This document shows, in pieces, positions 9,283 through 10,363 of a stretch of DNA of 14,788 bases. The notes under the pieces were generated by a model. That model was not told where the DNA came from. It made no database searches and worked only from the letters and a program-made list of their open reading frames with translations. Each line of letters begins with the position of its first letter. The first letter of the stretch is position 1. Source of the stretch: a virus. Lineage: Duplodnaviria; Heunggongvirae; Uroviricota; Caudoviricetes. The DNA is taken from positions 1 through 14,788 of the IMG/VR virus record IMGVR_UViG_2554235189_000004; one strand, written 5' to 3'. The position numbers were made by a program, and so were the translations under genes.

Positions 9283-9452
9283 CACTTATTTTCCCTCGCT
9301 CGCTTTTGCGGACCTTTTTTGTATCCGCGCCACGCCCGGCGCATACCAACCACAGAGCCTTTCGGGGGGGAGCTTACGGAGTGGTCAGTGTGACTTTCTC
9401 TGTGGGCAGATCGCTCCCGGGCGTTGGCTCACCCACCCAAAGGAACGTCACG

Positions 9453-9885
9453 ATGTTTGGTATTTTTGGTAAAAAAAGCCCGCAGAGCGGCAACGGAAAT
9501 TAAAAAGTTTGAAAAACGCGATCTGGCACAGGCGGTGATTAACGCCGCATACCTGGTGGCCTGTGCAGATGGTGAATGTGAGGCTTCCGAGAAAGCGAAG
9601 ATCGAACAGGTACTGCGTAATCAGCCAGCGCTGTCCGCGTTTACGTCAGAAATTAATGCGATGAGCGCAACCATTATCGGTCAGCTGGATACGAACTTTA
9701 AAATTGGTCGTCGTGCGGCGTTACGTGAGATCGAGGATGTGAAACACGATACGCGTGAAGCGGAAGATGTGCTGGATGTGGCGGTGGCCATTGCGGAGGC
9801 AGACGGCGAAATTGAGCCGGAAGAGCGCAAGGTGCTGGAAGAGATTGCCGGTGTTCTGGGTCTTCGTCTGGAGAATCACCAGTGA
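9453..9885 (+). pseudogene. TerB-domain (tellurite-resistance TerB-like) protein, reading frame broken at an A7 run (9471-9477)
   Basis: ATG 9453 with RBS 'aagga' gives MFGIFGKK then stops at 9503 (SPQSGNGN*); the +1 frame continues ARRAATEIKKFEKRDLAQAV…VACADGECEASEKAKIEQVLRN…VAVAIAEADGEIEPEERKVLEEIAGVLGL, a TerB-like twin-helix pattern. Six A's instead of seven would give one intact ORF of about 152 aa. Confidence 0.6.
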
Positions 9886-10049
9886 CGGTAAAACTGCGCC
9901 TGGCTGTGGCTGCACTCCTGCTGTTTCTGGTGGTGATGGTGGATTTCACCAGCAGAATCATGTCGGTGCTGGCGGATGGGGTGCTGGTCTGCGGCATTGT
10001 GGTATTGCTGTGGCCGGTGATAAAAAGAAACAGCCTGCATAATGCTTGA
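9882..10049 (+). CDS. Small hydrophobic membrane ORF (55 aa), GTG start overlapping the TerB-like stop
   Basis: GTGA overlap at 9882-9885; (M)TVKLRLAVAALLLFLVVMVDFTSRIMSVLADGVLVCGIVVLLWPVIKRNSLHNA has two predicted TM helices; below the ORF-track length cut-off. Confidence 0.35.
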   Translation: MTVKLRLAVAALLLFLVVMVDFTSRIMSVLADGVLVCGIVVLLWPVIKRNSLHNA

Positions 10050-10250
10050 TTTTTTTGTTTACTGTTTATTAAAAATACTACTGCATGGTGAATCCCCCTG
10101 TGCGGAGGGGCAATCAGCGAGTAGGTATATGGGATAATCGCGGATTCAGGTGCTGGTACTGAATTCACCGGGAGGCACCCGGCACCATGCTTTGCCACAA
10201 AAGTGTTATTTCTGTTTTTCTCAAACTATCATCGTTATCCCTTTATTTCC

Positions 10251-10277
10251 GGCTGCGCATGGCGCGGCCTTTTTTTT
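10251..10277 (+). terminator. Rho-independent terminator upstream of the nanS-p-like gene
   Basis: Stem 'ggctgcgc'/'gcgcggcc' (one G-U pair), 3-nt loop, followed by an 8-T run (10270-10277). Confidence 0.7.
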
Positions 10278-10363
10278 ACGACCAGCCACTGGCAGATGGT
10301 CATCCTGTGATTTGATTCCGGTTCCGGCTTTTTAACTCTGTTCCTGTACACGGGAGAAATTCG

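Follow-up and report, generated by a model that had tools for sequence, protein, structure and literature searches.

The gene pair tciAB owes its names to phage P1, and the same names are used in the annotations of JLK-2012 and phage 434. Both products are already known, namely as "tellurite resistance TerB family protein" (TciA) and "DUF3927 family protein" (TciB) in RefSeq and as families 632 and 1470 in PHROGs. A CRISPR interference (CRISPRi) knock-down of tciA, tciB, and tciC in P1 gave plating efficiencies between 0.65 and 1.3, which identified the genes as non-essential (PMC10695390). Here, we describe a tciAB locus on a stretch of 14,788 nucleotides from a virus of the Caudoviricetes (IMG/VR record IMGVR_UViG_2554235189_000004, positions 1 to 14,788; "the window" denotes this whole stretch). 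The region in question, 9283-10363, is part of the late-regulatory and lysis region of a lambdoid Escherichia coli prophage and has 100% identity to several RefSeq genomes, among them FORC_042 and 14EC001. As judged from nucleotide comparisons, tciAB sits there in the variable slot of the late-operon leader that holds stxAB in Shiga toxin (Stx) phages. We consider it probable that the pair, a known cargo found in the stx slot, acts as a membrane-tethered accessory that is made late in the lytic cycle.

The expression of stx2 is late and Q-dependent. The locus also contains a small RNA (sRNA) of the STnc100 family. EDL933 carries 11 STnc100 copies, which are transcribed without induction; a Northern blot confirmed one of them (PMC5331693). 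The STnc100 copy that follows stx2B in Stx2 phages overlaps in part with EcOnc27/sRNA103, an RNA that binds Hfq (PMC12711010; PMC12370729). According to a preprint of 2026, STnc100 is related to the PasD RNAs, and TerB genes are common neighbours of PasA/PasC (10.64898/2026.05.13.724894). What is added here is incremental and comprises the breakpoints of the slot, the near-identity of the Q module (99.9%), the chimeric tRNA scar, the prevalence and undecayed state of a frameshifted tciA allele (A7), and the strict linkage of TciA and TciB. The findings on the slot and on tciAB will not surprise a specialist.

The tciAB segment in the place of stxAB

In blastn comparisons with 933W, the window is homologous over 9091-9331, which covers the putative tRNA promoter pT, ileZ, the arg tRNAs, and a weak hairpin after the tRNAs that is a remnant of the one annotated upstream of stx2A in 933W. 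Homology is lost after 9331; it returns at 10065-10190, within STnc100, and again from 10351 on, where nanS-p follows. Given these breaks at 9331 and 10065, a tciAB segment of 733 bp replaces an stx2AB segment of 1369 bp. The module of Q, the late promoter PR', and the late terminator tR' (8327-9128) shares 99.9% identity along its full extent with the Stx2c phages 2851, Nil2, and 1717 and with some Stx2a phages; its Q part shows 98.5% identity to phage 21. The Q protein of the window-identical copy in FORC_042 (WP_000512807.1) is also that of the Stx2c prophage of O157:H7 Z1486, and the two have one phosphatase protein accession in common. The Z1486 prophage is 99.1% identical to window positions 7153-9246 and continues with tRNA-Ile, two tRNA-Arg, stx2c A and B, iraM, and the esterase gene. 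The equivalence of the locus with that of Stx phages, which the original prediction had drawn from gene order, thus holds at the nucleotide level, both by the breakpoints against 933W and by the same Q being followed by stx2c in Z1486. No published statement placing tciAB in the stx slot was found.

The content of the slot varies. In a soil isolate, the Q type of the window (97% identity) is followed by two tRNAs and then directly by the holin. The same Q type occurs in 754 complete genomes, only 17 of which have it contiguous with tciAB, and tciAB is also found behind several unrelated Q types. The tRNA sets ahead of the pair are Ile-Arg-Arg, Ile-Arg, Ile-Lys-Arg, Asn-(Thr)-Gly, or none. These varying combinations of tciAB, Q, and tRNAs characterize the cassette as variable cargo, as had been predicted, and not as core to this phage group. 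Most of the tciAB region is present in four of the 125 phage records that match the region, and none of the four is named as Stx-converting (judged by record names only).

Two side observations concern the same interval. The anti-adapter gene iraM of Z1486 (locus L107, 7176-7499) is encoded on the other strand, with stx2c B on one side and the esterase gene on the other, and represents further cargo. In a subset of related prophages (L015, 2235-3000; L013, L016-L022, and others), approximately 600 extra bases between the tRNAs and tciA hold two small open reading frames (ORFs) of 74 and 69 amino acids, so that the slot can take stacked cargo.

The border between the regulatory arm and the cargo is marked by a tRNA-like stretch (9206-9282), for which ARAGORN made no call and the Rfam tRNA model gave 19.7 bits, below the gathering score of 29. 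Its first 36 nucleotides are those of argN and the remainder those of argO of the Stx2c prophage. The rejection by both programs is explained by the two acceptor-stem halves, of which the 5' half derives from argN and the 3' half from argO and which cannot pair. The arms on either side match different prophages, i.e., the left arm the Stx2c prophage, as given above for 7153-9246, and the right arm (9212-12255) the tciAB prophage of EDL933 with 97.8% identity. This pattern indicates an unequal crossover between argN and argO, by which an Stx2c-type regulatory arm was joined to a tciAB-type late arm, leaving a dead tRNA behind. Of the tRNAs claimed for this position, the first (9129-9204) was therefore retained and the second was discarded as a functional tRNA.

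Genes for tRNAs flank tciAB in lambdoid phages, P1, and ChrisDB; they do not do so in the N4-like phage, in phage AF, and in most divergent genome loci. A role of the tRNAs as functional partners of tciAB was dropped because several loci of the tciAB type lack them, and they were taken as recombination anchors or hot spots.

Properties and linkage of TciA and TciB

The TerB-domain gene proposed for the locus was confirmed. After repair of the frameshift, TciA matches Pfam TerB (PF05099) with 56.3 bits (cut-off 24.4) over residues 27-139 and PHROG 632 at 5.7e-69, and it aligns with the solved Klebsiella TerB structure 2JXU_A (E 2.9e-8, residues 14-137 versus 20-144 of 153). All database relatives of TciA carry PF05099; one of them (P0029) has the source name "Dna-J like membrane chaperone protein". 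The protein has two conserved acidic motifs, A-D-G-E-x5-E and A-D-G-E-x4-E, and no hydrophobic segment (maximum KD19 on the Kyte-Doolittle scale, 1.08). Its AlphaFold2 model (pLDDT 83, pTM 0.79) is all-helical with seven helices, and a Foldseek search against the PDB returned the TerB-like structures 2H5N (probability 1.0, TM 0.52-0.61) and 2OU3 as best matches, which brought little over the sequence match to TerB. TciA is a soluble, single-domain, all-helical TerB protein. No other ter gene was present in the PGAP annotation of the identical locus, in which the neighbours are tRNAs, the DUF3927 gene, the sRNA, and nanS-p.

TciB matches Pfam DUF3927 (PF13064) with 62.3 bits (cut-off 25) over residues 3-51 and PHROG 1470 at 4e-30. 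Two hydrophobic peaks in the Kyte-Doolittle plot (residues ~5-21 and ~26-47), with basic residues at both ends, predict a two-segment membrane hairpin. The tciB gene has its own ribosome-binding site. Together with the overlap of the start and stop codons as GTGA, these features agree with the translationally coupled ORF of 55 amino acids and two transmembrane (TM) segments that had been expected. Two database proteins (P0014, 197 amino acids; P0061, 170 amino acids) contain TerB and DUF3927 in one chain; they may be true fusions or artefacts of read-through or frameshifting where the genes overlap (GTGA).

The two genes are tightly linked. A DUF3927 ORF directly follows the TerB gene in all 94 complete loci, 80 of which are E. 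coli-type loci from IMG/VR and 14 from other genomes of Enterobacterales and Pseudomonas (two with 96% and 70% identity, twelve with 37-44%). Annotations show the pairing also for P1, for FSL SP-076 (a virulent, N4-like phage of Salmonella), and for ChrisDB (a jumbo phage of Erwinia). In Pseudomonas phage AF, DUF3927 is missing, and a different small ORF with one TM segment overlaps the end of the TerB gene. TerB-family matches of the TciA type were found in 131 phage records (Vibrio, Erwinia, Pseudomonas, Klebsiella, Salmonella, and others). Within E. coli, tciAB is present in about 646-679 of 5426 complete genomes; the copy number has a median of three and reaches six. The ratio of nonsynonymous to synonymous substitutions (dN/dS) was 0.015-0.07 for tciA and 0.17-0.28 for tciB, which indicates purifying selection on both genes. 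The co-occurrence of a TerB-like gene and a small TM ORF, proposed from a single locus, is therefore general among these loci, and the small ORF is strongly conserved.

A scan against PADLOC-DB 2.0 gave only PDC-S48 for TciA (E 0.0027, 14.8 bits, no stretch passing) and no match for TciB. TciA and TciB were consequently rejected as a known anti-phage defence system.

The A7 allele of tciA

The frameshift noted in the original prediction is real. In alignments with JLK-2012, Evi, and PPyecE, the window has a single extra A, i.e., a run of seven (A7) versus six (A6) or a run interrupted by G. The G-interrupted form AAAAAGAAAA occurs in 55 of 85 loci in the sample from IMG/VR and reference sequences, and 79 of these 85 loci carry in-frame tciA alleles with other flanks. 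In its exact 90-nucleotide context, A7 is found in 549 complete-genome records, including EDL933, versus three with A6; many of the 549 are probably clonal O157:H7, so that the count is no independent evidence of selection. The extra base is thus no private lesion of the window. A sequencing error was ruled out because at least five independent complete genomes are 100% identical over the region, in addition to the 549 records with the allele. A long-standing pseudogene was likewise ruled out, since the A7 ORF shows no decay.

NCBI calls tciA intact from the TTG at 9457 in both EDL933 and FORC_042, the locus of which is identical. From this start, the N-terminus reads VFLVKK instead of FGIFGKK. 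The N-terminal motif M-F-G-x-F-x-K-K is conserved among the homologues of lambdoid phages, P1, Pseudomonas, and N4-like phages. Between the tciA core of the EDL933 A7 allele and an in-frame allele, the only difference is one synonymous base; the type in the window has one private change. A first comparison of tciA between the window and EDL933 gave a dN/dS of 0.63, which derives from only six differences, most of them polymorphisms common to in-frame alleles.

A homopolymer insertion could simply have inactivated tciA, with the TTG start being an annotation convenience and only tciB and the sRNA possibly of importance. The frame of the conserved ATG ends after 16 codons and the conserved N-terminal motif is lost with it. 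Since ATG and TTG use one Shine-Dalgarno sequence, ATG should dominate, which makes the A7 allele at best a low-expression variant. Further tciA copies are plainly broken, either by internal stops (L033, L082) or by a mutated start region (L090), which points to sporadic loss of copies, and with several copies per genome the loss of one is cheap. Against inactivation, the same allele recurs on different prophage backbones among the 549 or more records discussed above, the remaining 134 codons show no decay beyond the two changes just described, and translation in the TTG frame brings back a hydrophobic stretch with KK after it. On balance, we regard the inactivation of tciA as somewhat unlikely.

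Proposed expression and function

The preferred reading, a late lytic accessory at the membrane, would work as follows. The tciAB genes would be transcribed from PR' under Q antitermination and produced in the lytic cycle along with nanS-p and the lysis genes. From the A7 allele, full-length TciA would be made only from the TTG at 9457, with residues 1-6 replaced and a probably lower yield, or by rare slippage. TciB would anchor TciA to the inner membrane on its cytoplasmic side. The complex of both might condition the membrane or the divalent-cation state of the infected cell and might guard against premature depolarisation by colicin-like or abortive-infection insults. The pair would be dispensable in the laboratory.

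The late, Q-dependent transcription is deduced from the absence of a promoter-like site in the leader and from the same position as stx2. A consensus scan of the 170-nucleotide leader (9283-9452) detected no sigma-70-like promoter, a weak negative given that the same scan missed the expected PR'. As a structured RNA, the leader (9280-9460) folds no better than shuffled sequences (z -1.07). Of the proposed alternative late-expressed cargo module, the cargo in the stx slot is borne out at the nucleotide level, and late expression is made likely by the position.

Membrane anchoring is suggested by the distribution of hydrophobic segments, of which TciA has none and TciB two, and also by the one-TM ORF of phage AF and by the P0014 and P0061 fusions. 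The reported association of plasmid TerB with TerC offers an analogy for the tethering of TciA by TciB.

Several points weigh against this reading. The Foldseek matches of TciA to TerB-like structures are weak (E 0.01-1.4, TM 0.5-0.6), and the literature found on tciA, tciB, DUF3927, and phage TerB consists of homology annotation and the P1 CRISPRi table only. Late transcription is argued from position and the interaction of TciA and TciB from gene order. Some expression in the lysogen could result from the pT-like site (9091-9119) together with the degenerate hairpin that follows the tRNAs, and STnc100 copies are transcribed in uninduced EDL933 (PMC5331693). The ATG at 9453 yields only the 16-codon stub and competes with the TTG at 9457, which lies 12 nucleotides from the GGA core; TciA may accordingly be made poorly or not at all from the A7 allele.

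A lysogenic-conversion moron, in which tciAB expressed from the prophage would provide the lysogen with tellurite, colicin, or phage resistance, as hinted at by the ter-derived gene names, seems unlikely to us. TciA is a true TerB homologue, PHROGs places both families in the category "moron, auxiliary metabolic gene and host takeover", and up to six copies of tciAB are retained per genome. A promoter-like site precedes the tRNAs, only a weak hairpin separates these from tciA, and adjoining STnc100-type copies are transcribed in the uninduced lysogen EDL933 (PMC5331693). The moron is, however, at odds with the lack of a promoter-like site in the leader, of any other ter gene at the locus, and of a matching PADLOC defence model. 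In P1, tciABC is located behind the ban promoters, which are controlled by C1 operators and hence repressed by C1, and the tciAB family is present in virulent Schitoviridae (N4-like) and jumbo phages, which form no lysogen that could profit. The C1-controlled placement in P1 and the strictly virulent carriers led us to favour the lytic cycle over a benefit to the lysogen.

A bolder extension, advanced tentatively and with little confidence, is that tciAB is a widespread lytic module common to temperate phages (lambdoid, P1-like) and virulent ones (N4-like, jumbo), in which a tethered TerB protein shields the inner membrane or the cation balance of the infected cell from host abortive infection or attack of the colicin type, or sets the timing of lysis; the A7 allele would then be a tolerated or tuned low-expression variant, relying on the TTG or on slippage, and not a dead gene.

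The use of A7 as a recoding site, at which polymerase slippage or a +1 ribosomal shift on AAA-AAA-A tunes the TciA:TciB ratio, is very improbable: the shift lies within the homopolymer run, the removal of one A restores the conserved N-terminus, and the allele is widespread and otherwise intact, but seven A's are rather few for transcriptional slippage to be efficient in E. coli, a stimulatory element was neither searched for nor seen, most alleles are in frame or have the run interrupted by G, and a recent mutation with clonal expansion is a simpler account.

STnc100 and the right edge of the slot

The STnc100 match begins 8 nucleotides past the tciB stop codon, and its section 10081-10190 is 100% identical to the Stx1 phage 75/02 just downstream of stx1B. 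The terminator found 28 nucleotides beyond the match probably forms the 3' end of the sRNA and does not merely close the two ORFs. The strong terminator of the original prediction was therefore retained; its role in closing the ORF pair was not, since STnc100 intervenes. The right edge of the slot is a known regulatory RNA, beyond which the terminator lies.

Short ORFs at 10150-10335 and 10244-10387 (minus strand) overlap STnc100 and cross the terminator; they are probably spurious. RefSeq annotates a partial pseudogene ("hypothetical protein") on the minus strand over STnc100 and the terminator. Ribo-seq data showed ribosome coverage on some STnc100 copies of EDL933 (PMC5331693).

Layout of the late region

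The order of the locus from 5' to 3' is ninG, Ser/Thr phosphatase, Q, tR', a fragment of an insertion sequence (IS) end, the pT-like site, tRNA-Ile2, the tRNA-like stretch, tciA, tciB, STnc100, intrinsic terminator, nanS-p, a class II holin, a YdfR-family gene, and lysozyme (Table 1). The succession of Q, late promoter, tRNAs, esterase, holin, and endolysin assumed beforehand was recovered, each element at its stated position. PR' would lie just 5' of tR' at approximately 8823-8850. A sequence in phage Nil2 that is identical to the tR' hairpin of the window bears the annotation "tR' late terminator".

Table 1. Features of the late region of the window (positions refer to the 14,788-nucleotide stretch)
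Feature	Position	Strand	Description
Q, late antiterminator	8327-8815	+	phage-21/Stx2c-phage type; Pfam Phage_antitermQ, 8e-25
tR', late terminator	~8859-8903	+	hairpin with U7 tail; fold -22.6 kcal/mol, z -2.9
Promoter-like site	9091-9119	+	TTGCAA-17-TATTAT; aligns with annotated pT (putative tRNA promoter) of 933W
tRNA-Ile2	9129-9204	+	anticodon CAT, ileZ type; ARAGORN; Rfam tRNA, 72.5 bits; PGAP tRNA-Ile
argN/argO chimeric pseudo-tRNA	9206-9282	+	crossover in common GCCTTC at 9236-9241
Cargo segment in place of 933W stx2AB	9332-10064	+	blastn breakpoints versus 933W
Ancestral ATG start of tciA	9453-9503	+	here a 16-codon stub, MFGIFGKKSPQSGNGN, stop at 9501-9503
tciA, TerB family	9457-9885	+	NCBI start TTG; 142 codons; PGAP coding sequence WP_024216035.1, no pseudogene flag
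A7 run, frameshift site	9471-9477	+	one A more than in-frame A6 alleles
tciB, DUF3927	9882-10049	+	55 amino acids; GTG start overlapping tciA stop as GTGA; GGAG 8 nucleotides upstream
STnc100-family sRNA (PasD/STnc100)	10057-10223	+	Rfam RF02076, 101.1 bits versus gathering score 47; model positions 1-206
Intrinsic terminator	10251-10277	+	8-bp stem with 7 G-C pairs, then T8; -15.4 kcal/mol
nanS-p-type sialate O-acetylesterase	10364-12214	+	right flank of slot; Pfam DUF1737, SASA, and DUF6645; PGAP SASA family carbohydrate esterase

The fragment of approximately 100 bp between tR' and the tRNA promoter (8930-9029) matches the ends of IS1414/IS256-family elements, with up to 100% identity to IS ends on many plasmids and chromosomes. 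An identical stretch is annotated in Nil2 as "putative passively mobilized insertion similar to IS285". Further upstream, an ORF of 590 amino acids (4171-5943, minus strand; RefSeq "hypothetical protein") is oriented antisense to the nin region and flanked by ninE and a gene for an HNH endonuclease. It gave no Pfam match and no significant match in the PADLOC scan, and could represent further cargo or a defence gene. In the interval from nanS-p to the holin (12215-12500), no Rfam family reached the threshold; PasA/PasC sRNAs have been reported at this place in related prophages (10.64898/2026.05.13.724894).

Significance and comparison with known systems

The locus is a clean natural case of cargo exchange in the leader of a lambdoid late operon, since a Q21-type module with 99.9% identity governs stx2c in one prophage and tciAB in a second and has no cargo behind it in a third. 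This bears on the movement of Shiga toxin genes on and off phage backbones and on the typing of stx-negative relatives of Stx phages. Carried by roughly every eighth complete E. coli genome, and often in multiple copies, the conserved pair is also a reasonable target for work on phage-host interactions.

The gene arrangement is shared with tciABC of P1, in which a TerB protein of approximately 142 amino acids (42% identity) is encoded directly ahead of a DUF3927 protein (50% identity), the ORFs overlap or abut, tRNA genes lie nearby, and the setting is one of expression during lytic growth. In P1, however, the genes belong to the early, C1-controlled ban operon and not to a Q-dependent late leader as in the window, tRNAs are located on both sides, and tciA is in frame. 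P1 also has a third small gene, tciC, which was not found in the window, where no ORF of at least 40 amino acids starts between the tciB stop at 10049 and position 10150; P1 tciC has approximately 35 amino acids, and ORFs below that limit were not examined. The block of tRNA and tciABC in P1 lies just downstream of an annotated dicF-like region (locus L008, 1059-1160), so that an sRNA is a neighbour there, too.

TerB of the Klebsiella terZABCDE operon (2JXU) belongs to the same family as TciA, has a similar size, and is likewise all-helical with conserved acidic residues in two repeats. In contrast to it, tciA is phage-borne, has no terC, terD, terZ, or other ter gene nearby, and is accompanied by a DUF3927 peptide of 55 amino acids. 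DjlA likewise has a TerB-type domain that a TM element keeps at the inner membrane; its N-terminal region consists of a TM segment and a TerB-like domain followed by a J domain. There, anchor and domain form one polypeptide with the J domain, whereas tciAB encodes two proteins without it.

The resemblance to the STnc100/PasD family extends to a full-length Rfam match and to the position just after the cargo and before nanS-p; the copy in the window follows the tciB stop, the copy in Stx phages stxB. The stx2AB and stx1AB cassettes of 933W, 2851, and 75/02, finally, use the same slot after Q, PR', tR', pT, and ileZ-argN-argO and before STnc100 and nanS-p. They encode a secreted AB5 toxin, whereas the cargo of the window is unrelated and is predicted to consist of a cytoplasmic TerB protein and a membrane peptide.

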